IMG/VR virus record: IMGVR_UViG_3300037067_011443 | From: an uncultured virus (IMG/VR IMGVR_UViG_3300037067_011443) | Lineage: Duplodnaviria; Heunggongvirae; Uroviricota; Caudoviricetes | Reading direction: 5' to 3' (one strand) | Length of the DNA: 59,238 bases | Shown here: in pieces, positions 2,774-58,063 of the stretch | Numbering within the stretch: the first letter of the stretch is position 1 | Layout: every line of letters starts with the position of its first letter | Notes under the pieces: generated by a model | Database searches by the model: none | Told to the model about the DNA's origin: nothing | The model's input: only the letters and a program-made list of their open reading frames with translations | Made by a program: the position numbers and the translations under genes

Positions 2774-3527
2774 TATATAAGGAGTTGTTACAATGTGTAA
2801 GCCACAAACTAGATTTGAGTATAAAATTACCTTTGATGCTGATATCAAAAAAATTCCGGTAATTATCAATAAAATCAATGAAATACTATGCAATAGCGAA
2901 TTAAATGAACATATCACCAATATTGAGCCAACCATAACTATCATTGATAATTAATTATACTATAAAATATAACTTTCATCAAAACTGAAAAGAGGTGAAA
3001 AATATGCAACCATTTAAATGTCCAAGACGTAAAATGAAATAGATATAAAAAATGTATATACTTCTTATCTGCATGGTGAAATTATAATATAGAACTGGTA
3101 TTTTAAGTACTGTAAATTATTAACAATATCAAATAAAAAGGAGTGATTGCTAATGACTGGTAAAAATCTAGATATATTTTTAAACAACTTAAAAAATAGG
3201 TTAAATATAGCAATAAAAGAAGGAATGACATAAGAAGAAATCAAAAAAGAAATTGACCATGCAATTGGATATCAATTTGCACAAATAGAAGAAATTAAGT
3301 AATACATGAAACAGTTTCGCATTTCCTTATAAGCATTGATATTAAAGGGTTATAAAGCAATTAATACTGGACAGGATTTTAATGTTTTCATAGTTATAAT
3401 AAAAGCCGAACAGGAGTATTAAAAAATACTTCTATTTTGCTTTGTGTTTAATAAAATAAAATGTTGACAACTAAAATCATAGTGTGCTATAATGAATTAT
3501 ATCATTAATACATAGGAGGTCAACACC

Positions 3528-4205
3528 ATGACACAAAAAGAAATTAAGGAATTAAAAGAGTTTTGGAGCAGTAAAACACTAGGAGAAGTAAAAGGTTTAT
3601 ATAGTGAAAAAATGAGAATCTATAATCTGCATCAAGAAAGTATTAGAGAGAAAGCACAGGAACTTGTTAACCTTGATTTTAATAATAAATACTATGTTGA
3701 TAAAGCTAAAAATTTAATGAATGATATTAGTTTTTATAAATCCTATATAGTAGATGAAGAAAAAGAACTAAACCTTCTAAAACCTATATTAGATAAAAAA
3801 GAAATTGAAGGTATTGACCAAGCTGAATACGAAAATTATATAACTGGCAATATCAATATTCAAATACTAATTAAGGAAGTAAATGATTTAAAGCAAAATT
3901 TTATTGACAATGGTAATCAAGTAATACAGTACTACAAAGAAAAAGACGAACTAAAATCAATAGTAATTATTCTTACAGAGGAAGAAACAAAAGAAATGTA
4001 TGATATGATGTTAAAAGAAACAATAATGATATTAAAGGATAGAATCGGAAATATTGAAAAAGTTGATTATTTAAGAACAAATAATAATAAAGGTTTAGAC
4101 GGTAGATATATTGGCGAAAAAGGAACAATCACAATTAATACAATTCTTGCAGGCGGGTATAATATTCAAAAACTACATTACAGAACTTTAATATATAATA
4201 ATTAA
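3528..4205 (+). CDS. conserved phage-type hypothetical protein
   Basis: Own promoter (3464-3493), RBS and terminator. C-terminal TILAGGYNIQKLHYR motif that I recognise from phage hypothetical proteins. Confidence 0.7.
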   Translation: MTQKEIKELKEFWSSKTLGEVKGLYSEKMRIYNLHQESIREKAQELVNLDFNNKYYVDKAKNLMNDISFYKSYIVDEEKELNLLKPILDKKEIEGIDQAEYENYITGNINIQILIKEVNDLKQNFIDNGNQVIQYYKEKDELKSIVIILTEEETKEMYDMMLKETIMILKDRIGNIEKVDYLRTNNNKGLDGRYIGEKGTITINTILAGGYNIQKLHYRTLIYNN

Positions 4206-4229
4206 GAGAATCCGAAAGGGTTCTTTTTT
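4204..4229 (+). terminator. intrinsic terminator
   Basis: AGAATCC-GAAA-GGGTTCT followed by T-run. Confidence 0.75.
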
Positions 4230-4909
4230 CTTGTATATAATCTGTTACCAGTGAGCCTATATATTACCCTTTAAATGCTCATATCCTGCAAAGTGTTATA
4301 ATTGTACTAGTAAACATTCTACACGCTTAGAAACGATTATAGACGTTATAAATAACGGTACAAATTATTTTATTAAAACACTTGTATTCTGTTTTGTAGT
4401 GTGATAATATGTACTTAGTTCTTAAATCAAATACATATTTTCTAGGAGGTAATTATGTTTAATTTAGAATTATTAGAAAAGGCACAGAAATTTAATGTAA
4501 ATATTAATACATATAATAATGCTATAAATTGGTTGAAAAATGTTAATGAAATAAATTTAAGTAATGATATTGACCGAAACAATTTAGTTCTTTTAGATAA
4601 ATTAGAAAATGAAATAAACCAAGCGGAAATTAATTGGCTAAAAGCAAATAAAGATAATTTATTATTTGATGTTCAGTTTGAAGATAAAGGTTATGTTTTT
4701 GTAGATGTTTTAGAAGTCTATGATAATAAAAATAATAAAGTATATGAACAATGGTTTTACGGGGATGGAGAATCTCAGGAATTTATTGATATGATTTATG
4801 CATAGAACATGCATTTGGTTATAAAATAATTTGTATAAACACTTGCAATTATATTAATAACGTGTTAGAATTAGTTATGGTTATTAATACATATTTGGAG
4901 GTAGACAAA

Positions 4910-5446: not shown

Positions 5447-6358
5447 ACAAAATAAATGAGGTTAGAAGGGTGTAAAAGCACTTCTAATTCATAATATAAA
5501 ATGGAGGTTATTATAATGGATAAAACAAGTTATTGTACTCAGTGTACGGCTGAGAATGGTCAAGAAGGTGATTTTGGATTTACAGGAGTTTATCCAACTA
5601 ATTACATAAGGACTACACCAATATTTAATGATTTAGGCGAATTATTTATGTATTTTAAGGAAAATAATATAAGTTATAGATAATATGATAGAATGATGAT
5701 TTTAAGTTAATGTTAAATTTTAGGAGGAAATTATAATAATAAATGTAGATAAAATGAATGTAGAACAAAAAAAAGCATTGAGCGACTACCAATTTTTAAT
5801 TGGTCAAATGAGAGTATCTGGACACAATATAGAAACCCTCGATTTAACTGATAACAAACGAGTTAATGATATGAATAAATTTTATAATGGTTTGTTTACT
5901 AATATAATAGAATAATTTAAATTGCTTGTTAATATAAAACAAGTACTGAGTATTATAATTTAAAAGGAGGTCAAAATTTATGGATGAATTAATTCCAATG
6001 AACGAAAGTGAATATTTTGATTTATTTTTTGATAATGTAGAAACAGAACAATAATAAATATAAAAAAGAGTATAAACATTATTGAAATAAATTTATGGAG
6101 GTAATTTTATATGCATGATATTGACTATTTACTTGATAATATGACATGGAAATCCAAGGAAGAATTAGAAAAAGAAAATAAATAATAAATATTGTTTGCT
6201 GATATGAAGCAAGCGACAAGCGTTATAATCTTTATTTGATAAAATAAAAGATGTGTCAATAAATTTTAAGAATTACTATTGACAAATTATATTAATATCT
6301 CTATAATGAGAAGTATCAGCAATACGGATAATAAAATAATTAAATGGAGGGCATGAAA

Positions 6359-8294: not shown

Positions 8295-10143
8295 TAATAA
8301 AATAAATTAAATATAAGTATTGCAATACTATAAATAGTGTGTTATTCTTAGATTAACAAATTACATAAAGGTACTAAGTGCCTAGAGGGAGCGTAAAAGA
8401 TGAATAAAGAAAAATACGAATTAATAATGCAAATTACAAAGAAGGCTGATGAAATGGGTTTACTATGGGTATAGCCTAAACAGGCTATATTAAAACACTG
8501 GTAGCCGTTCCAAAGTCGGCACAGAATAGGAGAATAAAACATTATGAATTTAGAAAAGGGAATTGACCTTATGTATAAATATGGTTCAAAAACTGAAATA
8601 GAAAATCAAAATAAGAATATCTATGTAATTACGATTAAGTTTAAATACGAATCAATAAAAGTATCAGTAAATGAGCCAACTATTGACGGATTAATTAAAT
8701 TAATTCAATCAGATTTACATGATTCGTATTCTAAAAAAGATGATATACCAGTAACTTTTGAAGAATCAAAAAGTAATGACAGGATAAAAGTATTTAAAGT
8801 AATTGATGAGCCTTTTGGTATGTATTTTTTAAATGTTGTAATTGACCAAAAACCATTATTAATATTTTAGTGAATGAATAGTAAATTTGGTAACATTTAT
8901 TAAGGACAATAAAATAATATTAAGGAGAGTGAATATAATGTTAAATTTAAAATGTAAAAAAGAATTTGCAGTAGATGTGGAACAGTACGGAATTGATTTT
9001 TTAGTTGGTAATATATATAATGCAAAGCATGTAAATAATAATTGTTATTATATAACGTCTGAAAGTGGTTCTGATGTTGAAATGAATCAACAAGAAGTTA
9101 AGGAACACTTTACATCTACAATCTTTTAATAATGCAATAGAAAGCAAGTTTTATCATAATGTTAAATTATAGGAGGTTATATTATGAGTTATCAATTAGT
9201 AAAAAGAATCTCATTTAAAAAAGACGGAGTTTATTTTTCAGCTTGTAGTAATAATGTTATACCAAAAAATTATTATTCAGAAAAAAGTAAATATCATAGT
9301 AAGTTATTAGAATCAGAGGGAAAAGAATCAGTAATTAAAATAATATTATGGGACTTTATTTCTGGAAATTTTCAATCATTAGGCGATAATGAAAATATAA
9401 ATAAATTTTCTAATGTAGCTAAAAAAGTAAAATTAACTAATAAATATAATGAACTAAGTAATATTTATTGGGAATGGGATAACATTAAAAGAAGTATTGA
9501 AGAAAAGGAAAAGTCAAAAGAAGAAATACAAGAGTTATTATTTAATGAGTGGAATCAATAAAATAATAGGAGCGTGGCAAAATGAAATTATCTGAATACA
9601 TAGAAAATAAAAAAGTTGAACTAGTAGCCGTAAATAAATTTAAATCGGTAGAATTTAAAAGGCTAGACAATTGCCAAGTATCACAATTTATGCATTCTTG
9701 TATACTGGATTTTACGGATACAAAAATTGATACGTCAATTGAGGTTGAAGAGTTTGACCGCACCAAGTTAGGCAATACTAAAATTGATTGTATTGAAATA
9801 ACTTTTAATGTAGTAAAGCCAAGATGCAGAAAACCAGAGAGCCTAAGAACGTATGTTAAAATTAGTTAAGGGAGGGTTAATAATAATGGATATAGATAAA
9901 ATTATTGAAAGTTTACCTTTTGGTACAGGTAATTTAGGATTTAGTAATGTAGTTGGTCATGCGTTTTTTACTTCATCTTTAAGCGACAAGCCTTATTCAG
10001 TAAAAGAGAATAAAAACGATAAATATAAATATACATATACAATTGCAGGATTTCCAGTTATATTAGGAATCAGAGAAGCAATTGATAACTGTAAAGAATT
10101 AAAAGTAATATCTGATACACATATAGCAATAATATTCTAATGT

Positions 10144-10177: not shown

Positions 10178-11837
10178 ATAGCCATTTATCAACATATTGT
10201 ATATAATTACATTGTCGGAACTGGTAGAGCCTTAAAAACGATTCTATGACGTTTATATATTTGTATAAATTTATATTAATAATTGCTTGACATGGGGATA
10301 TAATAAGAGTAATATTATATTAACAAGTATGTAATCAATTATTAAAAGGTGGTGTTTACAATGTTAAAAGCTAGTGAAAGATTGTGTTCCTGTGGTTGTG
10401 GTCAAATTATAGATTTAAAGCAAAGCAATTACATAGTCAAGGAAAACACTCACAGAAATAATTATTATGTTAGTAAATACCATTTACCAGAAAACTACAA
10501 AGGTATTGAAGATTGGTCAATTGAAAAAGGAATGTTTAAAGAAGTTAAAAATTGTGATTAATTTGTAGGAGGTTATAAAAATGAAAATACAAAGAGTTAA
10601 AGAAATTTTTCAAGATTTGTTTCCTAAAAAATGTAGATGTGGAAGAAATGCAGTAGTTATAAATAAAACATATAAAAACGAAAAGATATATATGTGTTCA
10701 TATTGTTTAAGGTCAATAAGATTTAAAGAAAAAGAGTTTTTCAAGTCAATTCTTCCTTATGGAAGTAATAAATAAAAACAATATAAAATTGTCTTTTTAT
10801 GCACTTATTTGTCGAAAGATTTATATTGTATGTTTTATATTTTTATAATATTTGAGAAATAAAAATTTAGAGTAATAAAAACTAAGGAGGGTTTTAAAAA
10901 TGGATATTATGGATATTATAGAGTTTAGGAAATTTTTAAAGGAACAAAATTACATACATTTTGAAGCAAATCACAGCAGAGAACAAAAAACAGAATTTGT
11001 AATAAAAACTAATATTAAAAATTTGGTTGAAATAGTTGTTTTTGAACGTGCTGATGCTTTATCTAGTTTAAATATGACAAAAATGTATGTTTGCCATACT
11101 GATAGTTATTACAATATGATTAGTGATACTGTAAAAGCAGCATTTGAAGCTAATCAATTTTATTCTATTAGTATATGGCAGGGTGATAAAGAATTTATTT
11201 TACCAGAAGGAAGAAATATATAAAATCATAGAATTCTGCTTTCATTTGGTTTTAAAAAATAATTAATTATAACTAGGAGGTTATTTTATTATGAAAACTT
11301 GGATGGGAACTATTAAAAAACAAAATAATATTGATTTAGAAAAGGCTTTTGCGGTTGTAGTTAAGACAGGTAGGACAATGTTTGATTTTGAAGTTTTTAA
11401 CAAACAGGATTTTGGATTAATTGGAAATAGAGAAATAATAGAAGCATGGTATTAAAATAATATATAATGATGAAATCAGCCTTTTATGTTGAAATTTGTC
11501 GAAATGTTTTTAACAATAATTCTTAGTTTTTAAGAAATAAGTATTGACAATAGAGAATTTAACCTTTATAATAAGAAATATCAAGAGAAGTTAATAAAAT
11601 AATTTAATGGAGGTTGTTTAATATGTTTAGTGGAATAATGGAGAGAATCAACAAGATAAAGAAATTATCAGAAGGAGAAAAGGCAGAGCTAAAAGAATCA
11701 ATATATTATCACCATGATACATGCAGAATTTATTTACTTGAGAATCCTAATGTATCAATAGTTATAAGAAATTCTTTAGAAGATAGAATGATAATATTAA
11801 GTCAAGCACTTGACAAATTGAGATAAGGGCGAATAAT

Positions 11838-12853: not shown

Positions 12854-15086
12854 TTGTCTACAGGTGTCACAGTGATGTTTTATATCCAGTATAGTAATAC
12901 AACTATATATTCAACAATAATAAACGCTCACAAAGGATTACAGAGCCTTGTAATTATGTATAGAATTATTTTAATAACCTATTGCAATCTATCCTAATAC
13001 ATGGTAAAATAAATTATAGATTTCGGACGGTGGCGTGTGAAAAATCATTTAACGAGCCATAAAATGAATATATGATAAAATAATAGTTCTATGGCTTTTT
13101 ATTTTCTAAAATGCTTGACAAAATTATATTATTAATGCTATAATAAGTTATATTAATAAATAAGGAGTGGCGAACATGAAGCAGATAAGATTATCTAATG
13201 AAATTATGACACAAATAAACACTGGAAAGATTAAAGCCGTTGAGCTAGTAAGTTACATATTAAAAACAGTTACAGGAACTAGCACCGCAAAGGAATTGAG
13301 TAATACAGGGTTAAAGGATATTAGTTTTGATGGAGAATATGCAATAAGTGGAGCAATAGACACAAGAAACAAAACACTAAACTTGATATTCTAGCAGGGA
13401 ATATTCCCTGCTTTATCTTAATAATATAATACATATGGAGGTTTTAACATGAGTAAACAACAAACATTTATAACTAAGCTAATAGACGAAAACAACAAAA
13501 TGATTGACTTTGAAAGATGGGCAGATAAAAGAATTAAAACCGTTGAAAGTAAGCTAAAAGAATTATATACAAGATATTATGGCATATATAAAAATAATAT
13601 TGAAAAATCAGAATACATAGTAATATATGAAACATTAAATAATAACGATATAGAAGTAAAACGTATTAATATAAAAGAGTTTTTAAGTCTTGCATAATTG
13701 CAAGGCTTTTAGCTTATGGAGGGTAAAATATGAATATAGAAAAATCATGTAAGAATTGCCGAGAATGTGTCCTGCAACAACAATTTACATATAATATTGA
13801 ATCTGATGTTTATTGTCTTGGTGAATCTGGATTTATTGAAGAAATAACAAAAGAATATTTAAACATTACAGAAACATTAGAGTATATGCAGGAACAAGGC
13901 TTTATAAAAAAGAATGTTAATATTAAGGAATTAGCCGAAAATGATAATATGTTAAACTTGTTAGTTGAGCAAATAGGAAACGCTGTATATTCCTTTTTAG
14001 TTAGGCAAATAAAAGGAATTAAAGTAAATTTAAAACCAGTTGATAGTAATTTTTGTTGTAAGTATTGGAGGTAAATAATATGTTAGTAATTATAGGCATT
14101 ATATTTTTATTGATATCATATATAGTTTTAAATTTTGCTTGTGCTTTTTGTGTACATCATATAGATAAACCAAAGAGAAAAGGTTTATATTCTTATTTTT
14201 TAAAATTATTAAATAAACGGCTAAATGATGAAGATGATTTTCAAAAATTAATGTTTTCGTGGGTTATTTGTATGCAAGGAATAATATTTTTAGGACTTGG
14301 CATAATCTTTATATTTTTATATATTATGACTATAGCACAATCTATATATATTTAAAACATTATGATTCCAGTATCACAAACCAACCGCACAGAATCGGCT
14401 ACAATCTATTTTTATGTACAGGGTAATACAGTTACATTAGTTGATATTGCATAGGCTTAAAATGGCTTATATATGATATTGAAAAAACACAATTTATATT
14501 AATATACTATTGACTTATGGGGATAATAAGTATAATATTATATATAGATAGTAGTTATAAAATAAATTTAGGAGGTACTTTACTATGAAAAATAATTTAA
14601 CTTATGAGGTAGTTAGCTTATTAAAACAACGTAAAATCTTAGAAATATTAGCGAAAAAAGAAATTGAAATTAATAGATGCTTTACTAATGAGGAACTAAA
14701 AAGATTTGAAAATCAAATTAATATAGATAAAAATACTCGAAAAGAAATTGATTTCTTAAAAATATGTATTTTGGATGAAGTATTAATAACTATTAATAAT
14801 ATAAAAAATAATATACTTAATAGTGTAAAAAATAATCAAATAAGCAAAGAATCAGCACAATTTTTATTAAAGGAATTAATTGGAATGCAAAACAAAAGAA
14901 CTAAGGAATTGCAATCTATAAAAAAGGATTGAGCCGAAAGGCTTTTTTCTTTTATGCCACAGAAAGTATATTTCATTCAGAAAATAAAGTTTAATTAATG
15001 TGAAAATTAGTATTGACAGTATGAATTTATGGGTATATACTAAGTACATGATAACAAAATAAATATAAATGAGGGAGAATAATAAA

Positions 15087-19287: not shown

Positions 19288-19551
19288 ATGAATACTCAAG
19301 CTGATATGTTAAAGTTAATAACAGACTATAACAATCAAGACCGTAAGATTATAAAGGATAATTTAAAGCGTATAATGTGGAAGCAGAGTATCAAGCCATC
19401 AGATGTGATGAAATTAGGATTTGGTAAAAATAACGTATATCAATGGACTAATAGTAAAGCAAATAACATTCCTATGTTTGAGCAAGCCTTGACTATAGCA
19501 GTACATTTTAAATTTGATGTAACAGAACTATATAATAGCAAGGTTTTATAA
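19288..19551 (+). CDS. HTH (XRE-like) protein
   Basis: KNNVYQW...IPMFEQALTIA...DVTEL pattern. Confidence 0.6.
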   Translation: MNTQADMLKLITDYNNQDRKIIKDNLKRIMWKQSIKPSDVMKLGFGKNNVYQWTNSKANNIPMFEQALTIAVHFKFDVTELYNSKVL

Positions 19552-30700: not shown

Positions 30701-30744
30701 TATAGCTTAAAATGCGAGTTTTATGATTTTTGGAGGTTTGAGTT

Positions 30745-35851: not shown

Positions 35852-38027
35852 AATCAAGTATGATAATATGTATTCATAAAATAAATTAAAGATTGGAGTA
35901 CATAATGATTAAATATTTAAATATTTTAAGGAATTATTTCATAGACCAAAATTAGTTTTTACAGATAGAGTAGATGGAATCTATATTACATTTGAGTAAG
36001 GAGTTAAAATTATTATATGTACATAACAAGAGATGATAGCAAGTCACCAGTACAAGATTTTTTAGATAATGTAACTCTAAAGTTAAACAGTAAGTTGTTA
36101 GCTGAGGCTGAAGAAAAGAATGGTATAGTAGTTGGATGGAATATAATACAAATTAAAATAAAATAACAGAAGAAGATATTTCATAAAAATATTAATTTGA
36201 AATTACTTAGAATATTTAGTATAATATACAAAACCAAAAAAGAGAGAAGGTTTATTTATGGTTGATTTTAGAAATATTTATAAAGATGTAATAAATAAAA
36301 TATATAATAATAAAACAAATTTAAAGTTAATAGAAGAATTTGATTCTAATGATTTAATTCAATCTGGATTAAATCAAATGAATTACATGGATTCTTTATC
36401 TTTTATAGAACAAATTATATGTTATAATAATATTTTAATTTTATTAACTACTTATGGACAATATTCTTTAACTAAAAGATATAATTATTCATCTTTATTA
36501 AATATAGATTGTATAAATGATGAAGATTGGGAAATTGGTTATGATGATTTTGAACAAGATGTAGAAAATAAATATATTTATGTTAGCACATATATACGTA
36601 ATATAGAACTTAATGGTTGGTGTCATTTAAAAATATTATCAAATGAGTTTGTAAAATATTTAGATGATGGTGGAGATATTACTATTTCAGAAGCAATGTT
36701 GAAACCTAAAACTAGAGCAAATGCTAAAGATATAAATATTTCAAAATTCTGTGAACATGTTTATGAATATTGGGATGTTTTTAAAAATTGGATAGTTCCA
36801 GATTATATGGAGGAATTACCTAATGATTGGGATAATTATAGTTTTATGAAAATCAAATTTATAATTAATAGAATGATGCAAATAGAATAACATGATAGAA
36901 TACTTGTTTCGTAGAAAGTGTAAAAATGGAGGACAAAATGAAAGGAATTAAAATATCAGAAAGTGATAGATGTCATGGATGTTTTTTATCTCCTAGATGG
37001 TTTGTAAAGATTATAGATGGATATTATAGATGTCCAGAGTGTAAAACACTATATAACAAGGTACATAACGGAATATATAAAGTAGTCGAAACGAAATAAG
37101 TGTTTTAACTTAATAAAAAAGGAGAATAATTATATGGATATATTAACTCAAGTACTAGATAAAATAGAAAAAACAATTGAAGTAGGTAGTATGCTGAATT
37201 TATTTGAGGTAGGTTTAGCCTTAAAGGTATTAGAAGATAGACTTTGGAGTATTGATGACACTTTAGCTCAAAGATGTAATAATTTGCAACACAAGATTTT
37301 TGGCGAATAAATAAAGAGGTGATAAAAATGAAAAAGATATTAGGTATTATGTTAGGAATTTGTATAGTAATAGGTTCAGCATATATGAGTTATATGTTAG
37401 GAAGTAAAATTATAGCTGATTATTATTTATATGGCACATTAGGAGTTGTTATAAGTTTTATAGTAGGTGTGATATTATTTAGCATAGTAATAGCTATTGT
37501 GTCAATAATTTTAAGAAAAATAAATATAAAAATAACTTAGAATTCTGAATCTATCCACTATTAAAATAAGTTTAAGGAGGCTAATTTATGATAAGAGACC
37601 CTATGTTAACCCAACAGGCAATATACATGTATAGAACATATCTATTATCCTTTAGTATGGATGATATTATAGATTGTAAAATATTATCTTTTGATGATTG
37701 GGTAATTAAAAATAAGATATTTGAAGAATATTGGAATAAGTGAAGGGAGATAAATTGATGAGAATTGAATTAAATATACAATCAGATAATCATAATTTAT
37801 ATTGTGAAAATAAAATACTTTTTTTTGAATTTTTTAATGATGGAGGAATTCGTGAAAATCATGTTTGGATAAATATAGATGGTAGAGAAGTTTCTGTAAA
37901 TAAAGATGAGTTAAAGAAAGTATTATCAATTCTTTAATAAGAAACAAAAACAAAATGTTATAAAAATCCTATTCCATAGTGTTTTATTAATAAAATAAAA
38001 TTATATAAGAAAGGCTGTGTAGTTAAA

Positions 38028-42019: not shown

Positions 42020-43360
42020 ATGTTAAGAAACAGAATAGAATTAGAAAAAGAATTAAATGAGATAATAACTATAAATCAAGATTTAAGGGTAGCATCTAAT
42101 GCTATTAAAAATTTATTTATTGAAAAAGGTATATCTGTAGCAGAGTTTAATGATATTTGGACTAAACGAAAATCATTAAATGATATAGATATGCCTTCTT
42201 TATATGTGCTTACTAAATCATTATTTGAAATTACTCAAAATAAAAATATAAAATTAGAAGATTGGTTTACTGAGGTTGAAATTAGAGATGGAAATAATTA
42301 TGTTAGAGAAATATCTGAAGAAGAAAAAATTGAATATCCTATTGTTATTAAAAATGTTTTAAAAGGAAAAGAAGACCAATATATGGCATATATTCAAGGA
42401 AGCTTTATTAAATTGTTATTTTCTAGTGGTAAAATTCCATATAATTTTGATACACAGCGAAATCCAAAGATAAAAAAAGATGAATCCGATGAATTAATAA
42501 AAACAGCTAATATTAATCCTGAATCTGTTATGGAAATAGCCAAAGAAATGGATGATAAAACTTTTATTACAAATTGTATTACTTTAAATATTTTACAAGA
42601 TGGTACTGAGAAGTTTGAATATAATTCAAAAAGAGAATTGATTATATATTCTGGACAAATAAATCCTATTGATGGGTTTCATCGTATTCAAGCAATGTTA
42701 GTAGCATTAGCGGAAAATCCTTCTTTGGAGTATATTACTGAAGTTCGTTTCACTCATTGGGATGTACAAAAATGTAGAAATTTTATTTTTCAAGAAGATA
42801 AGAGAAATAAGATTGACAAACGATATATGAATAGTATTATTAATGTTAGTAAATGGGGTAATAAAGTTATTAGTTCATTAAACGAAAGTAATTCTGATAT
42901 TAAAGGAAAAATTGTTACAGATATAACTTATATTATAAAAAATAAAGCTTTAACAATGTTTGATATAATGTCAAATACTATTGATGAACTTTATGAAATA
43001 AAAACAAATAAAGATATGTTAGATTTATCAAAATGGTTAGGAACATTCTTTGACCAAATAATTGGTTCGTATCCTGATGAGTTTCTTAGTGAAATTGGAG
43101 AAACAAAATTAGTAAGTGTTATTAATATGCCATTAACATTTGTTGGATATTTAACATTATCTAAAGTTTTACAAAATGAAAGTAATTGGGAAGACAAATT
43201 AGGTGAAATGTTAGATAGATTAGATTTTAGTATAACTAATCCTCAATGGGATAAATTAGGTATTATTAAAAATAATAAAGCAATTTTGACATATTCAAAA
43301 CCAGCTATGACTAAAATAATCAATTTTTTTGAGAAAGAAGTAGGTATTATTAATGTATAA
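42020..43360 (+). CDS. DndB/DGQHR-domain protein, SPbeta YopQ-like
   Basis: YNFDTQR, ITLNI, IDGFHR and FIFQE motifs; size and position directly upstream of the MrpR-like gene. Confidence 0.75.
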   Translation: MLRNRIELEKELNEIITINQDLRVASNAIKNLFIEKGISVAEFNDIWTKRKSLNDIDMPSLYVLTKSLFEITQNKNIKLEDWFTEVEIRDGNNYVREISEEEKIEYPIVIKNVLKGKEDQYMAYIQGSFIKLLFSSGKIPYNFDTQRNPKIKKDESDELIKTANINPESVMEIAKEMDDKTFITNCITLNILQDGTEKFEYNSKRELIIYSGQINPIDGFHRIQAMLVALAENPSLEYITEVRFTHWDVQKCRNFIFQEDKRNKIDKRYMNSIINVSKWGNKVISSLNESNSDIKGKIVTDITYIIKNKALTMFDIMSNTIDELYEIKTNKDMLDLSKWLGTFFDQIIGSYPDEFLSEIGETKLVSVINMPLTFVGYLTLSKVLQNESNWEDKLGEMLDRLDFSITNPQWDKLGIIKNNKAILTYSKPAMTKIINFFEKEVGIINV

Positions 43361-44369
43361 TGAGGAATTAAAAAAGAGATATTTATCATCGTCAATATAT
43401 GATAGTAAAACTCAAAAAACTTATCTTTCTGATTTAAATCGTATTGGTGAATCTGAAGATTATTTTAAAAAGGATTTATTTAATTTCACATATGAACAAA
43501 TTGATGAAGCTTTAAAAGGTATTCAATTTAAAAAACAATCTTCAGTGGAACGAGCAGTTTCTACTTATAGAATGTATTCTAATTGGGCAAACCAAAATGG
43601 ATTTGTTCCTTCAAAAACTAATCTATGGGAACTATATACTATGGAAAAATTATCACAGTATGTTTGGGAGTATGCTTTAGATAATAGTTTTATAACTAGG
43701 GAACAATTATTTAATGATATTATTTCTAAAGTTGAAAATCCTTTAGATTATATTCCTACACTATTAACTTTTGAAGGTATTTATGGTAGGACTATGGACG
43801 AAATGATAAATTTAAAATACAAAGATATTAATTTTAAGACGGGTGTTGTAAAATTAACTAGTAACTCAGGAGAGCAAAGAAGTATTATTTTAAAAGATAA
43901 AAGAATACTAAATCTTATACAAGATGCAGAAATGGAGACCACTTATTATGCAGATAATGGTAGGTCTGAAGGATTTAATGCTAAATCAAGTATTATTATG
44001 ACACCTTTCGTAATTAGAAAAACTACTTTAAAAAGTATTATAAAATATGCCAGTAATGATGGTTTGTTTTATGGAAATGAAAAAGTTGGAGTAATGACAA
44101 TTGAAGCTAGATTTGCAAGAATATTTCGAGGATATAGACATCCAAATCCCAATAAATGCAAAGCACCTTTTGTTGAAGGATTTTCTTTCTTAAATGCAAC
44201 TAATATATTTAAATCTGGATATTTTGATTATTGTTTAAATATAGAGAAAGAAAAAGGAGAATTAGAATTTAAAGATTTTGAATTAGCTTGTGTAAGATAT
44301 GGTATTAGACCTGTCTTAGCATCAACATATAAAAAGCAATATTTAAATTGGAGAAATAGGTTAAAGTAA
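43353..44369 (+). CDS. MrpR/YopR-like lytic-cycle repressor (tyrosine-recombinase fold, probably catalytically inactive)
   Basis: MYNEELKKRYL...E.YF.KDLF.F; FEGIYG...EMINLKYKDI lacks the first catalytic Arg; NIFKSG replaces HxxR; overlaps the YopQ-like gene. Confidence 0.75.
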   Translation: MYNEELKKRYLSSSIYDSKTQKTYLSDLNRIGESEDYFKKDLFNFTYEQIDEALKGIQFKKQSSVERAVSTYRMYSNWANQNGFVPSKTNLWELYTMEKLSQYVWEYALDNSFITREQLFNDIISKVENPLDYIPTLLTFEGIYGRTMDEMINLKYKDINFKTGVVKLTSNSGEQRSIILKDKRILNLIQDAEMETTYYADNGRSEGFNAKSSIIMTPFVIRKTTLKSIIKYASNDGLFYGNEKVGVMTIEARFARIFRGYRHPNPNKCKAPFVEGFSFLNATNIFKSGYFDYCLNIEKEKGELEFKDFELACVRYGIRPVLASTYKKQYLNWRNRLK

Positions 44370-44827: not shown

Positions 44828-45247
44828 ATGAATTTTGGTGAAAAATTAGAAATGTTAAGAATTAAATCAGGATTAAATAAAAAACAACTTGGAGAAAAAG
44901 TTGAAGTAGCTGCTGATACGATAAGTAAATATATAAAAAAAGAAACTGTAGAAGGAATTGATGCAATAGTTATAAAGAGAATTGCTGGTTTTTTTGGAGT
45001 TTATGTTGATTATCTGACAAATAATACTGAAAGTTTACTTATTGATATTCAAAAAGATGATTTAAATTATTTACACTGTGAAGAAAAAAACGATATAGAT
45101 TTAGTTAATTTTGTTAGTGAATTTAAGTATTATATAGAAACTTTAAATTTTGTTTATAACTCATCAAAACTAGAAACAGAAAAGAAGAAATATATAATAG
45201 ATTCATTAGGAATTGGATTAAAACTATTAGAAGAAAATTCTAAATAA
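44828..45247 (+). CDS. XRE-family transcriptional regulator
   Basis: FGEKLEMLR...LGEKVEVAADTISKY...IAGFFGVYVDYL. Confidence 0.85.
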   Translation: MNFGEKLEMLRIKSGLNKKQLGEKVEVAADTISKYIKKETVEGIDAIVIKRIAGFFGVYVDYLTNNTESLLIDIQKDDLNYLHCEEKNDIDLVNFVSEFKYYIETLNFVYNSSKLETEKKKYIIDSLGIGLKLLEENSK

Positions 45248-45265
45248 TAAAAGAGGATTATTATC

Positions 45266-45649: not shown

Positions 45650-46687
45650 ATAACTTATAAGGGCTTTATAGCCCTTCCTATATAATTAAATAAAATAGTA
45701 AATAAAGGGGATGACAAAATTGAGAAGTAAAGAGTTTAAGTTTACAAAAATAAAAAAAAGAAAGATATATGAAACATGGATTAATAAAGATTATAAATCT
45801 AAAATTGTCATATATATTCTTAAAACGCCAAAGAATTATATAAATAGTGAGTATTATCACTTCCAAATCTCAAGTACTAAGAGTTTAAAATATGATATAA
45901 GATATGATTCCATATATGATTTACAAATATTTAATACATATAATGAAGTAGAGAATGCAGTAAAGAATTGGTGGCATAAGAATTTAAAAGGCTAATATAG
46001 TCTTCTTTTTATATTTTATTGTTATTAAAATAAATTTACGTAATATATATTGACATGTAAAAGTGTATGTGATATTATGTATTTGTAAGATAAAGGTAGA
46101 TACATAAAAAGTGCAGCAAATTGGAATTTTATAATAAGTGGAGGAAGATAAATGAAAGAGTTAATTGTTAAGGGTAAAGCAAGTCAATTAAATGGATTTG
46201 ATTGGGAGTTTGTAACAAGCGAAAAAAATTACTCATCAGATATATTAGTTGGAATTGATGAATTACTTGTTAGTAACAATATAGTAGTTATTGATAATAA
46301 TGAAGAAATTGAAGTTGTCATTAGATTTAAAAACAGATTATAAATTCTGTGTTTTGAGTAAAGTTAAGGAGGGTTGTAATTATGAAACAAATGCCTAAAG
46401 GTATTAAAGACAAACTTAGAAGGTTATATAATCTAAAAGAAAAAGCTCAAGATTTAGAATTTATTTTAAGCGCTGATTTTCAGAAATATGGAATAGATAT
46501 TAATGATTTATCAGCTATGGGTAAGGGAGATGTGCAGACAGAAGCATATACTTTTATAACTTATGCTGAAGGTGATGTTGAAGAAAGTATTAATATGATT
46601 GAAAAAGTGTTTTTACATTATGCAAATAATAAAGAAATAACTGAATGAAATTAACCTTTCATAATAAATTTAGAGGAGGATACATAA

Positions 46688-47239: not shown

Positions 47240-49293
47240 GAAATAAGGTTTGGATATTTGATAGTAATAGAAGGAAATATGAAGATGATAAAGGTAATAA
47301 ACTTGATAGATGTTGGTACAGGTATCATTTCACTGAAAAATATATTATAGGAGAAACTACACAAAGTTGGATAGTAGGATATAAGAATAACTCAGTTGAT
47401 GATAGGTCTAATTATAAAGTAAATAAAAAGACATTAAACTATTCAACTACAAATTTAGTAGCTCATGATGGGAAACTATATATATCAGAAGAAGAAATTA
47501 ATGAAAAATGTTGGCTTAATGATAATAAAGGAAATATACGTGAAAGAGTGTCAAGATGTTCTGATTATGAAAAGTTAAAGAAAATTGAAGAAATTTTAAA
47601 TAGTTGATATAAAAATTGTTCTATTATGTTATACAAAGGGAGTGATTGTTATGAAAGGGGTAAGAATTAATGCAATGGCAACTATTAATCGAGGTATATT
47701 TAAAGATATAATAGGTAAGGTAATTGCTTTTGATAGTGAAAAAGATGAAGTAATAATTGATGTTGATATATATGCAAAAGTTATTATTGATTCAGAAAGT
47801 ATTGACCAAATTTAGTTATGCTTTAGAAACTATGTTTTATGTTATGTGGAGGAGTTATGGCACAGGATTGTCAAGTATTAAAAGACCAATTTAATAATAC
47901 TATTATATGTGAAAGAAATATTGGTGGTTTGGATTATTATTTTATTGTACTTCCTATGGGAGATAATGATAAAAGAAAAACTTTTAATTCATGGGATTCT
48001 GCAAAGAAATATTTAAATTCATTTTTCCCAAGGAAGAGATTAAAGTTTGAAGAAATATAACATAGATTCTTTATTCTGTTAATAAATTTAGAGAGGAGAA
48101 ATGAAAAATTTTGAAAAATATTAAAGATTATATTAATAGTATTACAAAATCTGATGATATAACTATTCACTATGGTATAAATGGCATAGATAAAGCTGAT
48201 AATATAGAAAATTTCCTTATAAATTATAGTGATATTAATGTAGATAAGAATGGTGATTGTTATAATTCAAATTATCAAATTATTTGGGGTATGTATATTG
48301 TAAAAACAAATAACTATGGATTAGTTTACTAAAAGTTCAATTAAATCTATTATTGTAATTTGAGTGAAAGGAATAAAAATATGATAAAAATAGGAAAAAT
48401 ATTTAGTGGTTGGTATGGTGGACATTATGAAGATACTGGATTATTTGAAACAAAGAAAGATGCAGAACGTGGAATAAATTGTGATGATAGACTATATGAA
48501 TTATTTTCAGAATATGAAGGGAAGAAAATTAAAGTAACAATTGAAATAGTAGAAGAATGATATAAATCTGCTATTTAATTTAAAAATTTAAAGGAGGAAA
48601 AATTATGGATACGCTACATACTTTTATGCCGACAATTGAAGTAAGTGATTATGAAGGAAAAGATATATTGACATATCAATCACTAATAATGCCTAAAATT
48701 GGAGAATGGGTTTCTTATAAGGATTCTAAAGGTTTTAATATGCAAGCTAAAATATCTCAAATTAATCATGAAATTGTGCAAGGTAATGTTGTTAATATAT
48801 GCAAAAGAATTTTTGTTACAGTAGATGATATTGAGAGTGTTTAAAGAGAGGTTAAATATGGGTAAAAATAAACCAAGACATGATCCAGACAAAAAACAAA
48901 ATAGATATAGTGAATGGTGTTCTTATGCGGAAGAGTATAGTGATGGTTCAATATATTGTGAATGTGGTTATGGAGATGCTAAAATATGTAAAGGGAATAG
49001 GCACAACTGTATAAAAGTTAAATATAAAAAACTAGCTTGTAGAAGTGATAAGCAGAAAAATGAAGGATGATATATAATGAATAGTAATGATAGAAAACAG
49101 CTTAGAAAAATATGTTGTGAAGAGCATTCAGATATTATTAAAGGTAGAAGAATGACAGATTTTGAAAGTAAAATATTTCATGGATGGACAGATATTTTAA
49201 ATGGAATAAGTGAAGAAGAATTAAACGAAATATTTGAAAGTTATATTAAAAAATGAATAAAACTTATATTCTATTATAAGTGAGGTGATTAAA

Positions 49294-51238: not shown

Positions 51239-51523
51239 ACAAGGACGTGATACAAATAGATTATGAGCAAATCGGTATTCTATCTTAATTGAAAGGAGGT
51301 TAATATGAAAAAATATATTATTGAAGACACCGTAAATCCTGAAGATGGTAAATATGTTGATAATCGTTTTAACGGTACAAATGATATAATTAAAGCTAGA
51401 AAATATAATAACTATGATGAAGCAAGAAAAGAAATACTAGAAACTTTTGATAGACCTTTTGATTTTAAAATTCAAGAAATTGTTATGAATTAGACATTTT
51501 AATCTAAGTGAGGAGAAAAAAAT

Positions 51524-51889
51524 ATGAAAAGAGATATGGAGTTAATAAGAAAAATATTATTGACTATTGAAGAAACTGATGATTATCCCATTTACAATTT
51601 AGATATTGAAGGTTATAGACCTAGTGTGGTTGAATATCATTGCAGTATTTTGTTTGATGCTGGCTTAGTATATGACTATATAAACATATGTGGGCTAGGA
51701 GATGATGATGAGTGTGAATTTGGAATTAGTAGGTTAACTTGGGAAGGACATGAATTTTTAGAAACAGCAAAAGATGATTCTAGATGGAAAAAGGCTATGG
51801 AGGTTGTAAAAGAAAAAGGCGGTAATATAACTTTAGATATATTGAAACAATTACTAATACAATTAATGAAAACCACATTTTTGGGATAA
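51524..51889 (+). CDS. DUF2513 family protein
   Basis: MKRDMELIRKILL...YH...RLTWEGHEFLE. Confidence 0.88.
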   Translation: MKRDMELIRKILLTIEETDDYPIYNLDIEGYRPSVVEYHCSILFDAGLVYDYINICGLGDDDECEFGISRLTWEGHEFLETAKDDSRWKKAMEVVKEKGGNITLDILKQLLIQLMKTTFLG

Positions 51890-52191
51890 AATGTGGATTT
51901 TAAATAATAATAAAAGGAGTTATTTAATTGTATAAAGTAATATATATATATATGATTTAGATGGTTTGAATCTTTTTTAAAAGAAGCAGACAAAGAAGGT
52001 TATAAAATAATTAGTGTTACAGAAACAGAAATATATTATACTATAATTTATGAATGTGAATAGAAACATCATTTGCTTATAAAATATAATGTATTATAAA
52101 TATAATTTTTATGCTTGACAATATTTACTAGTAAGTATATAATTGTATTATAAGGATGTTTTAATAAAATAAATTTAGAGGAGAATATATA

Positions 52192-53436: not shown

Positions 53437-53448
53437 GAGGAGTATATA

Positions 53449-54000: not shown

Positions 54001-57000
54001 ATATAAAATAAATTGGAGGTTATATATTATGACAGAATATCAAAGAATAGAAAAATGTCCATGTATGAAATTAGATGGGAATAAATTAATATGTGGCAAT
54101 ATGGAAAGACATGATAGAACACAATGTTGTGAATTATATATTATAGGGTTTGATGAAGATGGATTTTTAACAGCAGTATGTGCTTATGATTGGTCTATAA
54201 TAAAAATGTATTCTGATGGAAGTTTTGAACATTGTGGTAAGTTGCAAGAAAGTTTAGCAACAATCAAAGATAACCCTGACATAATTCTTAAAAATTCACA
54301 AGTAATGACTATTTCAGAAATAAGTAAGGCTTTGGGGAAGAATATAATTGTTAGAGAACATATTGGGAAAGAGAAATATAGATATTAATATGAAATTTGG
54401 ATTTGATATAAAGAGAGGATAGAAAATTATGAATAATGAAATTAGTTCAGTAATTATGTTTGGAATATTATTTGGATGGATACCACTATTAGCATTTGGT
54501 CATGCTATATCATTCATTATAAGAGCATATAGGCATACTATAGACATCTCAGTAGAGAGTATTGTTGTGAATACTAATAGTATAGAAAGTTTGGATGAAG
54601 ATATGGTTGATAAAATAGTTTTAAATAATATAACTAAGAAGGGAGAATGATATGAAAGAAATAACAGTTTATAAATGTCAATGTGGTGAAATATATGAAC
54701 ATAAAAATCTAATTACTATATGTAAATATTGTGGTATAGAAATCTGCCCAGAGTGTGGTGGATTTGAAGATGGACTATGTTGGAATTGTAACGATGAACT
54801 TTGCAAAATAATTGATAATGTTGAAAATGATACTTTATTTGAAGAACATAGTAGACAATTAATTGCAGAATTTAAAAACAAATACAATCAAATGAAAGAG
54901 TTAGGACAATTGTTATAAAAGATTCATTTGGTTCACAAAATAATTTAGAAAGGAGTATAGATTATGATAGTAACATCATGGGTTTTATTAGTTATGTTTG
55001 CAGTTATAGGATTAACATTTTTAAGAAAAATGTTTGTTGGAAGGCTTAATAGGTTAGAATTATTTTTAATGTTGTTAAGTATTGTTGTGTCTGCTTTAAG
55101 TGCAGGAGTAATTTTTGGTGGTTTATTAAAATAGAACTTGTATTTTGTAGTGAGATTAAAAGAAGAAAGGAGTAAATTAAATTATGAACAATATACATAT
55201 TCAAATTGAAAGAAAAGAAAATGAAAATTATATTCCAGAATTTCCATTTATGTTTGTTAGTGGGTGTGATTTATATATGACAATATATGATAGTTCTATA
55301 AAAAAATATAAAGTAATCAGATTAAGTAATGGATACGTTCAAACTAATTTTGAGGGCAATAGTATAGATGAATTATTGGATTGTATTAATGATGGCAGCA
55401 ACACCTTAATGGACGTGAGTATTGTAGCAAAAGAATTAGAATAAATCATCCATTTCATGATATGGATAAAAAGGAGCTAAACATGAGTAAAAAATATACT
55501 ACAAGTTATTTAGATATATTTGATAAGTATCCAATAACAAGTAAGGAAACAGGGCTAGAGTATAGGGTTAAAATAATGCCTTATCATCAATCTATTGATA
55601 AATATTCGGAAGGTTGTATAGTTACTCTATATAAAAAGAGATTCCTTTTTGATAAAGAATTGATAAATAGATATTTTAACAACAATAATAGTAAAATAAA
55701 TATTGAATATTTATATAGTAGTGATAAAGAAACAGATTATGATTATAATATGATTGAAATGACTAGATTAATTGTTAATTTGTACGAAGAAACTATTAAA
55801 AAGAAATTAAAAAATACAAAACAAGTTAATACAGATTTTGAAGATTTTAATAATTGGAATGGTGAGGTATAAATATGAAAAAATTCAAATGTACGGTAGA
55901 AAGAACAGATGAATACATAATTGAGTTTGATGAAAATGTTATTAATGATGAATTTTTAAAAGGGTTTAGTGGTTATATTTTTCATGTAGAAGATTTAATT
56001 GATTTAGCAGAGCATATAGCACAATTTAGAGCTAGATTTGGAGAAGGTTTTATAGAGGGTATAGGTAGACCATTAGAAGATGGAGAAAGACCAGCTTTCG
56101 CAAATGAAAAAGAATTAATTAGAGCTATTAATATAAATGTAGTTAGTGAAGATAATGATATTTATGTAGCTGTTAAGGAGGAGGAATAATATGGGAGAGT
56201 TACTTACTAAAAGTGAAAATGATGAGTTAATAAAAAGAATTAATAATGGGGACACCTTATTAGGCAAAATTACAGATGCTTATAATGAAGTAGCTATGGA
56301 CTATAACAAAGCATCCAGTGAAAGAGAATCAATGAAAGTAGTTATTAAACAATTATTAGGATGGGCTAAAGAAGAAGGGTTAGATATTCCCTATGAGAAA
56401 TGGGATGAAGTTGTAGATAAAGCACATGACGATGATACTTTCTTTACTGAAATGTTAAGTTGGTTTATAGACCACATGAATGATTTTGGTGAAAATTATG
56501 GTTTAGAAATGGAGGAAAACTAAAATGGATATAAGTAAAGAATCAGGTAGAGTAAGTGCTTACAAATTAACTAGATTTATTAAAGACAAACAATTAGAAG
56601 AAACAGTATTTATACCACAATTTGAATATATTACATATGAATGTGGAACAGGCGATTTAATTGAATCAAAATTTCTATGCATTGAAGATGGATACAATAT
56701 AAGTGGATTAGCTGAATTTAACACTGAATTTGAAGCTTTACAGTTTGCCTTAGAGTATAGAGATAATTTGGAATTTTAAAATGAAAAATCAATTTTAATC
56801 ACTTTTTCAGGAGGAGGAATAAGTTATGAGACAATATTTATATATATATAATAAAGAAGATACAATCTATAGTGCAAACACATTTGCAAATATGGTCTTA
56901 AATAATGAAATTAAAAAAGATAAGTTAATAAAAATTAAGAATTTTGTATGTAAAGAATATGGTAGATTCATATTTAACAATGAAATATATAATATAGGAT

Positions 57001-58063
57001 ATAATGTTTTGAAAGATAATATAAATTATATTGCTGTATGTAAATCATGATAGAAAGTTGATTTTAAGTACTTTTAGAAAGGAGATAGTAATGGCTAGAA
57101 CTGATAACCATCAAGATATATTAGACCAATTTGAAAGTCAGAATGGTCAGCCTTGGAAGAAAGAGCAGAAATACTTCATATCCTATACCGCTTATACTGG
57201 AATAAGAACGGATTTTCTAAATAGGATTATACATACACAAGATGATATAACTGAAGATTTAATTGAAAAAATTCAAGATTCTTTATAACAATTAAATGTA
57301 AATAGACAAGAAGATTTATTTTTTGGAGTTCAAATTATTAATATAGTTAAAATATAAGAAATAATAGGAGAAAATAATATGGGAGTAAGAGCGTTAGAAG
57401 GTAATTATGATTTTTATGAATTACTACAAGATATTCCTTCTATAGATGTAGGAGCAATATTCTATTGGGATAAAAATGATACTGTATATGGTAGTGTAGC
57501 TGAAGGTTGTTTAAAACTATGTTGGACTCCTAATGGTAATTGCTATAAAGGTGAAGGAAATTGTGGTTTATGTGGTGATACTATTATTTTTCATGCAAGT
57601 GCTAGAACAAATATCAAATGGTTTAAGTTAATACAAGAATCAATTAAAATTAAAGAAAATATACCAGAAATGACAATAGGTGATATTGAAAATGAGTTAG
57701 GATATAAATTTAAACTTGTGACCAAATAACTGATTTATTACAAAAAGGAGAATAAAAAAATGAAATATAGTAAGAGACCATTGTGGAGTGATTATTGTAA
57801 AATAAAAAATGAACAATATAAAATTATTGATAATATGATTACAATTTATAAAAGAATTAGTGTATATCATCAAATTCAAATTACTAATTTTTATCAAATA
57901 CAATCAAAGAATGAAATAAACAAAGGGAATGAATTTAAAGTTGATTATGGTGATTTTTGTACCGTTCTAAAATTTCATGAATCAATGAATGGTCAAACTA
58001 TTGTAATTGAAGAATATTATGGTTGTTAAAATAAATTATAATTTTTGGGAGGATAATATAAAA

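Follow-up and report, generated by a model that had tools for sequence, protein, structure and literature searches.

A fixed-spacing DNA palindrome in the intergenic gaps of an uncultured caudovirus recurs across large SPbeta-like phages of Firmicutes

Stoperators, known from the mycobacteriophages L5 and Bxb1 and other cluster A phages, are 13-bp asymmetric sites of strict orientation that are bound by the immunity repressor and differ between immunity groups. The KorB-binding OB sites of plasmid RK2 and the parS sites are palindromes present in a dozen or more copies, from which a dimer of the ParB family represses at a distance. Among gene-shuffling elements, integrons carry attC sites, the Xer-dependent pdif modules of Acinetobacter plasmids have an 11-6-11 layout with variable spacers, and the PeSL cassettes of T4-type phages consist of promoters and real stem-loops. 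Here we describe a palindrome repeated in the gaps between genes of a stretch of DNA of 59 kb (59,238 nucleotides; hereafter, the window) from an uncultured virus of the Caudoviricetes (IMG/VR record IMGVR_UViG_3300037067_011443), in which every called gene lies on the + strand and the GC content is 23–31%. An initial annotation, made from the sequence alone, had read about 40 such sites as the recombination sites or scars of an integron-like cassette system. Our analysis shows that the sites are copies of a lineage-wide, two-fold-symmetric motif of large SPbeta-like Firmicute phages, more widespread than that annotation could show, and we weigh whether they serve as dispersed operators.

Each site was scored over 12 positions, namely A at position -1, T-R-R-A-A, a spacer of six free bases (N6) and T-T-T-[T/C/G]-[A/G]-T. 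Measured in this way, 18 of the 44 sites of the initial annotation have no mismatch, 16 have one, 8 have two and 2 (given there as 37538 and 51267) have three, while the C or G that headed its consensus is unsupported, that column being mixed. A strict regular expression (regex) matched the + strand 21 times, against a mean of 1.9 and a maximum of 7 in 100 dinucleotide shuffles. Allowing up to one mismatch over the whole window yielded 58 + strand sites, 34 of them already listed; 45 are intergenic and 13 coding, with intergenic DNA making up 20.7% of the window. When the intergenic segments alone were shuffled (105 segments, 12,920 bp), 41 observed sites stood against 7.74 ± 2.76, with a maximum of 15 in 300 shuffles. 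The AT-richness of the gaps therefore does not explain the motif, and the observation of the initial annotation is confirmed, with about 8 of the 41 intergenic matches expected by chance.

The spacing is specific as well. Matches number 21 at N6 and 0–5 at each of N2–N5 and N7–N12, and the 6-bp cores are distinct in 45 of 45 intergenic sites, in agreement with the earlier description of fixed spacing with differing cores. Sites begin close behind a stop codon (median distance 7 nt, no more than 10 nt in 29/45 sites) and end farther from the next start (median 35 nt, more than 60 nt in 16/45); of the 97 gaps between genes that measure 25 nt or more, 37 contain a site. These gaps follow same-strand, mostly promoterless single genes, as they would in an integron-type array; the many copies in short intergenic gaps (45 in 59 kb) are also what an array of dispersed operators presents. 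Counted per 5 kb along the window, intergenic sites number 4, 3, 6, 1, 4, 4, 7, 4, 0, 4, 4 and 4, so that the stretches reported as sparse (12–19 and 38–46 kb) are sparse only in part. Promoters resembling those of sigma-A were identified by eye, in a few long gaps only; in four of these the site lies at the stop codon, upstream of the promoter (2138, 4802, 22291 and 52060), and the site at 23580-23597 exactly fills the 17-bp spacer of a TTGACA/TACAAT promoter pair. A position weight matrix (PWM) scan of the window returned 56 matches on the + strand and 15 on the minus strand only, and the right arm carries a G in 14/57 sites, compared with 3/57 for the mirror C of the left arm. Through this bias the sites have an orientation relative to transcription, for which the G-rich, C-poor coding strand accounts only in part.

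The sites are given below with their mismatches to the 12-position consensus; "listed" marks those already present in the initial annotation.

2138..2155, + strand, unlisted site, 0 mismatches; overlaps the stop codon of gene 1949-2149 and is followed by a TTGACA promoter-like site
2962..2979, + strand, listed site, 0 mismatches
3089..3106, + strand, listed site, 1 mismatch
4802..4819, + strand, listed site, 0 mismatches; holds the stop of gene 4455-4805, promoter-like site downstream
5688..5705, + strand, listed site, 1 mismatch
8874..8891, + strand, listed site, 1 mismatch
9137..9154, + strand, listed site, 0 mismatches
10783..10800, + strand, listed site, 0 mismatches
11228..11245, + strand, listed site, 0 mismatches
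11470..11487, + strand, listed site, 0 mismatches
13059..13076, + strand, possible site, unlisted, 1 mismatch
13075..13092, + strand, possible site, unlisted, 1 mismatch
14959..14976, + strand, possible site, unlisted, 1 mismatch
19532..19549, + strand, possible site, unlisted, 1 mismatch
20015..20032, + strand, listed site, 0 mismatches
20835..20852, + strand, possible site, unlisted, 1 mismatch; strong minus-strand PWM match at 20832 too
21609..21626, + strand, weak listed site, 2 mismatches
22291..22308, + strand, listed site, 1 mismatch; upstream of a TTGACA promoter-like site
23580..23597, + strand, unlisted site, 0 mismatches; in a TTGACA-17-TACAAT spacer, an operator-type placement
26027..26044, + strand, listed site, 0 mismatches
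26237..26254, + strand, listed site, 1 mismatch
26478..26495, + strand, listed site, 1 mismatch
26817..26834, + strand, weak listed site, 2 mismatches
29778..29795, + strand, listed site, 0 mismatches
30318..30335, + strand, listed site, 0 mismatches
30399..30416, + strand, possible site, unlisted, 1 mismatch; may be chance
30707..30724, + strand, listed site, 1 mismatch
31193..31210, + strand, listed site, 0 mismatches
31729..31746, + strand, listed site, 0 mismatches
32354..32371, + strand, listed site, 1 mismatch
32570..32587, + strand, listed site, 0 mismatches
35974..35991, + strand, possible site, unlisted, 1 mismatch; may be chance
36895..36912, + strand, listed site, 0 mismatches
37091..37108, + strand, weak listed site, 2 mismatches
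37328..37345, + strand, doubtful match, 1 mismatch; begins at the start codon of gene 37328-37540, probably chance
37537..37554, + strand, weak listed site, 3 mismatches
37960..37977, + strand, listed site, 1 mismatch
45247..45264, + strand, doubtful match, unlisted, 1 mismatch; may be chance
46115..46132, + strand, weak listed site, 2 mismatches
46340..46357, + strand, weak listed site, 2 mismatches
46645..46662, + strand, listed site, 0 mismatches
47823..47840, + strand, listed site, 1 mismatch
48062..48079, + strand, weak listed site, 2 mismatches
48562..48579, + strand, weak listed site, 2 mismatches
49257..49274, + strand, listed site, 1 mismatch
51266..51283, + strand, weak listed site, 3 mismatches
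51485..51502, + strand, weak listed site, 2 mismatches
51886..51903, + strand, listed site, 1 mismatch
52060..52077, + strand, listed site, 1 mismatch; upstream of a TTGACA promoter-like site
54390..54407, + strand, listed site, 0 mismatches
54915..54932, + strand, listed site, 0 mismatches
55131..55148, + strand, listed site, 0 mismatches
55441..55458, + strand, listed site, 1 mismatch; left breakpoint of variant L118 (see below) after base 55455, inside the right arm
56781..56798, + strand, listed site, 1 mismatch
57050..57067, + strand, listed site, 1 mismatch

The same palindrome recurs in related phages, whose whole records were scanned with the pattern read backwards as the control; a PWM trained on the window over-scores GC-rich loci and was dropped for comparisons across genomes. 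Site and control counts were 15 versus 1 in SPbeta, 16 versus 3 in phi3T, 29 versus 0 in Geobacillus phage E3, 40 versus 5 in Perkons, 10 versus 0 in a Staphylococcus SPbeta-like phage, 26 versus 1 in Mammaliicoccus phi127, 19 versus 1 in B. cereus pW2 and 28 versus 0 in B. subtilis PJN02, with a weaker 19 versus 7 in c-st. The core TAAAA-Nk-TTTTA is maximal at k=6 only, both in SPbeta (34 versus 0–3 at other spacings), E3 (30 versus 1–8) and Perkons (17 versus 0–3) and in pW2 (28), PJN02 (31), phi127 (37) and the Staphylococcus SPbeta-like phage (17), the last four with 0–8 at other spacings. Both the window and nine relatives thus show a sharp N6 spacing, and the relatives carry 17–37 sites per genome, mostly intergenic: 14/16 in SPbeta (31/34 for the 16-mer), 32/35 in E3, 31/41 in Perkons and 35/38 in a Brevibacillus prophage, next to 23/24 in the window. 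SPbeta has sites in convergent and divergent gaps too (12495, 57147, 128076), and in SPbeta and phi3T the half-site extends to about 11 bp (T-Y-T-R-R-A-TAAAA), which produces an 11-6-11 layout. In the AT-rich phage of the window, the motif is relaxed from the core (A)TAAAA-N6-TTTTA(T) to ATRRAA-N6-TTT[T/C/G][A/G]T.

Across the 7-Mb genome of Brevibacillus reuszeri, ATRAAA-N6-TTTYAT occurs 25 times (control 8), and 17 of these 25 matches fall in a low-GC prophage of about 100 kb, which is 35% GC, spans a contig end and encodes YopQ and YopR homologues. The sites outside the prophage are at control level (8 versus 8), and therefore no host regulon seems to use the motif. At the DUF4942 locus of this bacterium the motif stands in the same place as in the window. 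The prophage is split between contig C18 (about 840000-907361) and contig C19 (1 to about 45000) of the assembly (G001; loci L111–L117), and besides some 35 copies of the palindrome it carries YopQ/YopR, MazF-like and DUF4942 genes. No excess of sites was found in five other Firmicute phages (SPO1, SPP1, G, K and 0305phi8-36, with site/control counts of 0/0, 0/2, 15/18, 4/4 and 0/0, respectively), and the MrpR_N_CB domain was found in none of these five. No description of the palindrome was found in the literature searched, whose coverage stopped short of Brady et al. 2023 (Cell Host Microbe), Lazarevic et al. 1999 and the MrpR supplement; the repressors of Brady et al. 2023 are said to bind multiple sites, and the palindrome may already have been assigned there.

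The symmetry of the site appears to be a property of the DNA. In Perkons, the variable positions of the two arms change independently (8 G/C, 9 G/T, 12 A/C and 9 A/T in a hand count of 38 sites): the combination of G on the left and C on the right was observed 8 times against 8.9 expected, and 12/38 sites would form an A.C mismatch. The variable pair is mismatched in 21/45 sites of the window, where the predicted RNA minimum free energy averages -1.37 kcal/mol for sites and -1.01 kcal/mol for shuffles, the arms pair in 9/45 sites, and no Rfam match was obtained across the window. Neither the covariation nor the stable hairpin of an intrinsic terminator or structured RNA was found. Because the arms are independent and the RNA hairpins negligible, we interpret the sites as DNA of two-fold symmetry that a protein dimer would recognise; a dimer on duplex DNA has as its signature two independent half-sites set at a fixed distance.

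The following genes place the window among described phages, and two of them encode candidates for such a protein:

39194-39763, MazF/PemK-like endoribonuclease gene, upstream of the YopQ-YopR pair
42020..43360, + strand, YopQ (SroE)-like gene, DndB/ParB-Srx-like; Pfam DndB at 4.7e-11, tblastn matches to SPbeta yopQ and relatives; the weaker of the two candidate binders
43353..44369, + strand, YopR/MrpR/SroF-like gene of tyrosine-recombinase fold, 338 aa; overlaps the end of the YopQ-like gene; candidate binder

The product of the last gene matches Pfam MrpR_N_CB (4.8e-14), phrog_5830 integrase (1.6e-46) and the YopR/MrpR/SroF chains of the PDB (6e-11 to 3e-9, over residues 1-223). The gene order MazF–YopQ–YopR is shared with CST027-030 of Clostridium phage c-st, in which CST029-030 are the YopQ-YopR pair. 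On the strength of these homologues and this gene order, the window is assigned to the early/regulatory region of an SPbeta/c-st-like phage.

We put at about an even chance the proposal that the sites form a dispersed operator or roadblock for a putative protein dimer in early small-gene arrays. A phage-encoded or phage-lineage-specific dimer would bind each site, each arm being contacted by one subunit. The sites take up the sole free DNA of the packed early arrays, the stretch that separates a stop codon from the following ribosome-binding site (RBS), and the bound protein could switch off, or gate in another way, the read-through transcription of dozens of small genes, in the manner of stoperators in cluster A mycobacteriophages or of KorB sites on plasmid RK2. 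The likeliest binder would come from the tyrosine-recombinase-fold family of YopR (MrpR/SroF) and YopP (SroD), acting as a regulator and not as a recombinase, and we infer this family to be the leading candidate. Proteins of this fold bind inverted arms around a spacer of 6–8 bp. Of the window proteins, only the YopQ-like and YopR-like ones are related to proteins of all four of SPbeta, E3, Perkons and the Brevibacillus prophage. Comparison of six complete genomes gave 8 SPbeta open reading frames (ORFs) with a relative in every one of them, and only YopP and YopR lie outside the structural and replication blocks. In the solved complex of phi3T SroF, the box contains two tandem TTTTAT hexamers read in the major groove (bioRxiv 10.1101/2025.11.27.690993).

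Several observations weigh against this proposal. Most sites lie inside operons, away from promoters, so that a roadblock role has to be assumed. SroF binds its box as a monomer (bioRxiv 10.1101/2025.11.27.690993), and chromatin affinity precipitation sequencing (ChAP-seq) of MrpR in SPbeta gave ten peaks, all at SPBRE, with the 34 palindromes unreported in the accessible part of that source (PMC10516654). YopR-like proteins are just 23–30% identical across these phages, and the specificity of SroF differs even between SPbeta and phi3T; an invariant site combined with a divergent YopR argues for a better-conserved binder. Since the motif-rich phages have many core genes in common, the link to the YopR family may merely reflect common descent. 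Placement also varies, with sites hugging the stop codon in the window and the next start in E3, and a 43-kb viral fragment (G002; mostly replication genes, rated 24% complete) has counts of 0 versus 0 despite its YopQ- and YopR-like genes.

Other candidates were considered. SroE (YopQ) has been called a second repressor (bioRxiv 10.1101/2025.11.27.690993), but no DndB/YopQ-like gene was detected in pW2 (19 sites) or PJN02 (28 sites), and YopQ therefore cannot be the general binder. A promoter for the YonO RNA polymerase was rejected, as YonO uses a single start site upstream of yonK (PMC5467207). The LexA, CodY, ARG, Rex and ComK boxes and dif were rejected on spacing or sequence. In pW2 and PJN02, a palindrome lies 169 bp (record 147595-147612) and 168 bp (136144-136161), respectively, upstream of the start of the YopR-like gene, an arrangement that would fit autoregulation. 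The aimR promoter region of SPbeta has a palindrome at 76171-76186 (2265-2280 of locus L109), 13 bp upstream of an SPBRE-like sequence and ahead of the -35 element; the fragment used in the MrpR electrophoretic mobility shift assay, described simply as upstream of aimR, may have held both the palindrome and SPBRE.

Other explanations must be set against this proposal. Chance formation from stop codons and AT-rich gaps has some basis in a window of 25% GC overall, where the left arm holds TAA, TAG or TGA in 36 of 38 matches to a looser left-arm regex, this triplet being the real stop codon in sites at a stop distance of -2; yet intergenic shuffles give 7.7 sites where 41 are observed, the N6 spacing is specific, the embedded stop stands in varying frames with respect to the upstream gene, and the motif recurs in phages of 33–37% GC whose composition-matched controls are near 0. 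Shuffles, spacing and the relatives' controls refute this explanation, whose probability is negligible. A signal at the RNA level, whether for processing, as a small hairpin or terminator or as an operator of translation just ahead of the RBS, would account for the position between stop codon and RBS, for the preference for the coding strand in the PWM scan and for the strand-specific G of the right arm, and the window does hold a MazF/PemK-like endoribonuclease gene. We hold it to be very unlikely, given arms that do not covary, hairpins no better than those of shuffles, the absence of an Rfam match in the window and, in the relatives, a perfect DNA palindrome that in SPbeta also occupies convergent and divergent gaps; moreover, four window sites precede the next promoter-like site and would therefore be absent from the downstream transcript. 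The palindrome could instead be bound or bent by an architectural or host factor, either a protein of the HU/IHF type, from the phage (YonN-like) or from the host (HU), or some other protein conserved across Firmicutes, organising the phage DNA without direct gene-specific control. Of the 10 records tested, 8 carry a gene of the HU family, SPbeta YonN is 52–68% identical to its counterparts in E3, Perkons and the Brevibacillus prophage, a highly conserved binder suits a site that is invariant across genera, and A-tract and T-tract sequences are generally known to bend DNA. We nevertheless find it unlikely: no HU-family gene was detected in phi127, which has 26 sites; SPO1, which encodes the HU-like TF1, has 0; use by the host is not visible in Brevibacillus outside the prophage; and the sharp, base-specific TAAAA with N6 spacing is unusual for HU.

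It is also conceivable, though very unlikely in our judgement, that these are core-type sites at which a tyrosine recombinase of the phage, a YopP-like protein or an active enzyme related to it, cuts and rejoins the DNA and so moves or swaps single-gene cassettes. The geometry noted by the initial annotation, two inverted arms around a spacer within the 6–8 bp of core sites, is confirmed by the sharp N6 and by the 11-6-11 layout of SPbeta. Partner core sites also share one spacer sequence, whereas the 45 intergenic sites have 45 distinct ones, so that ordinary tyrosine-recombinase exchange between sites is blocked and a recombinase tolerant of mismatched overlaps would be required for exchange within the genome. 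The earlier statement that the window holds no intact recombinase stands in that none of the 110 window ORFs scanned matched Pfam Phage_integrase at E<=0.001; it is qualified by the recombinase-fold YopR/MrpR homologue at 43353-44369, the sole gene of this fold in the window. Genes of tyrosine-recombinase fold are present in every motif-rich phage examined, and canonical Phage_integrase (PF00589) genes in 5/5 motif-rich relatives tested. SPbeta MrpR retains 3 of 7 catalytic residues (PMC10516654). Breakpoints give a mixed picture. The variant L118, which is 99.7–99.97% identical to the window over the aligned parts, lacks the gene at 55483-55872 (129 aa): it diverges after base 55455, in the right arm of the site at 55441-55458, and rejoins at the ATG at 55875, the gene and its leader being replaced by 37 bp (L118 6252-6288) with another RBS. 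The 55455/55875 joint is also present in run X1, and its right breakpoint is a start codon, not a site; the presence or absence of this gene is a polymorphism between near-identical genomes of different metagenomes. Between SPbeta and phi3T, block ends fall in 13/31 site-bearing gaps and 28/152 other gaps (p=0.008), with 10/71 ends within 25 bp of a site centre; the excess falls to p=0.055 among length-matched gaps of 30–150 bp, and it is absent from the reciprocal phi3T/SPbeta comparison (10/27 versus 33/150, p=0.14) and from the staphylococcal pair (3/9 versus 13/136, p=0.06; 3/28 versus 15/167, p=0.73). The coincidence of breakpoints with sites is thus weak and inconsistent, extending to one of the two L118 breakpoints and to one comparison of four. 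A conserved sequence of 16–28 bp shared by otherwise unrelated neighbours would be expected to draw some crossovers and to stop BLAST extensions, and we therefore read the weak breakpoint signal as a by-product. For circular single-cassette junctions, no trustworthy joints were obtained from the metagenome contigs of four DNA runs, which are fragmentary unitigs in which, at 80% likeness, most joints have sides of 20–30 letters; only the 55455/55875 joint is confirmed, by L118. An integron-type gene-capture array is not supported: besides the distinct spacers and weak breakpoints, the window has no integron integrase IntI with attI and promoter Pc, and no folded attC-like structure, the conserved part of the site being 18 bp (up to 28 bp in SPbeta) and not an imperfect hairpin of 57–141 bp. 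In a variant of the recombination reading, exchange would occur between the same site on two genomes, with a YopP-like recombinase joining same-spacer sites of co-infecting or resident related phages; we regard such allelic crossover points as highly improbable. If they were real, modules could be swapped without flanking homology, and the unique spacers would be address labels that keep gene order while allowing mosaicism. Overall, a lineage-wide palindrome that in SPbeta also stands in convergent and divergent gaps fits a regulatory protein-binding site better than scars of gene capture.

The site matters beyond the window. SPbeta, whose genome holds 34 perfect copies of TAAAA-N6-TTTTA, is a model temperate phage in which MrpR/SroF, SroE, SroD and arbitrium repression are under active study, and the site recurs in phages of Bacillus, Geobacillus, Psychrobacillus, Brevibacillus, Staphylococcus and Mammaliicoccus as well as in this very AT-rich uncultured relative. 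Conservation of this extent implies a conserved binder and shared control of long arrays of small early genes. Naming the binder could clarify what these phages do with their orphan ParB-like and recombinase-like genes, and would show whether the weak link to mosaic boundaries is a by-product or a function.

Near-identical DNA is present in groundwater and landfill metagenome runs, none of those listed being an RNA run, and none was found in the phage or plasmid collections searched; a search with the YopQ-like protein matched one viral contig and zero genome contigs. About 130 mostly small window ORFs have no family match. Scattered among the small genes are two GmrSD_N/DUF262 genes (6353-7528 and 46688-47239), a protein with a cREC_REC domain (cyclic-phosphate processing receiver; 30407-30697), a DUF4942 methyltransferase-like protein (17624-19252), whose relatives are at most 52% identical, the best one in the Brevibacillus reuszeri prophage, and a DUF3560 protein (15087-16343), all of them possible defence or counter-defence cargo. 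The phage also carries a UvdE endonuclease (34946-35851), an AAA ATPase (50267-51238), a ClpX-like ATPase (52192-53436) and a YyaC/DUF1256 spore-protease-like gene (53449-54000), and a run of ten N lies at 23682-23691, in the 772-bp gap upstream of gene 23657-24184.

Three further motifs were observed. The sequence ATTATATTAATAA forms a second repeat, matched 25 times when one mismatch is allowed, against 6.9 expected (copies at 2175-2187, 4848-4860 and 27214-27226, with about 20 near-copies); it is located within TTGACA-type promoters or immediately upstream of them and may be the promoter operator of this phage, the counterpart of SPBRE in SPbeta. The sole GAAC-N4-GTTC (LexA-type) box of the window, at 41567-41578, is a separate feature from the palindromes and sits just upstream of the RBS of a 107-aa ORF (41596-41919), directly before the YopQ/YopR-like pair. 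The arrangement is reminiscent of Sar, a LexA-controlled antirepressor described for phi3T and SPbeta (bioRxiv 10.1101/2025.11.27.690993). Finally, TGTCGAA motifs, which resemble Spo0A boxes, occur at 10810, 11497 and 41450, two of them within about 25 nt downstream of the sites at 10783 and 11470 and in alike contexts (TTGTCGAAA).

Set beside the described systems, the palindrome resembles attC and pdif elements in following single, same-strand and mostly promoterless genes, and pdif in its 11-6-11 layout; it differs from attC in its length of 18–28 bp, against 57–141 bp of folded DNA, and in lacking IntI, attI and Pc, and from pdif in having no XerD-arm signature and no alternating orientation, with all spacers unique and weak breakpoint evidence. 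With the PeSL cassettes it shares the form of a repeated intergenic element in hyperplastic small-gene regions, possibly a crossover point for module shuffling, although the window sites are neither promoters nor stem-loops. The SPBRE and phi3TRE boxes of MrpR are close in setting, being dispersed sites in the same phage family, with a homologue of their repressor encoded in the window, and the SroF box of phi3T has the TTTTAT hexamer in common (bioRxiv 10.1101/2025.11.27.690993). SPBRE is nevertheless a different, asymmetric sequence with about ten bound promoter copies (PMC10516654), and a string resembling SPBRE, derived from the regions upstream of yopM and yopV, matches SPbeta only 3 times, never at one of the 34 palindromes; the SroF box, too, is asymmetric and monomer-bound, and SPbeta and phi3T have different versions of it. 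KorB and parS sites are likewise palindromic and multi-copy, and a ParB/Srx-like YopQ/SroE is encoded beside YopR here, but pW2 and PJN02 have the sites without a detectable DndB/YopQ-like gene. Like stoperators, the sites occur in tens of copies in short intergenic gaps, mostly within operons; unlike stoperators, they are palindromes with a variable 6-bp centre, near-invariant across phages of different host genera.

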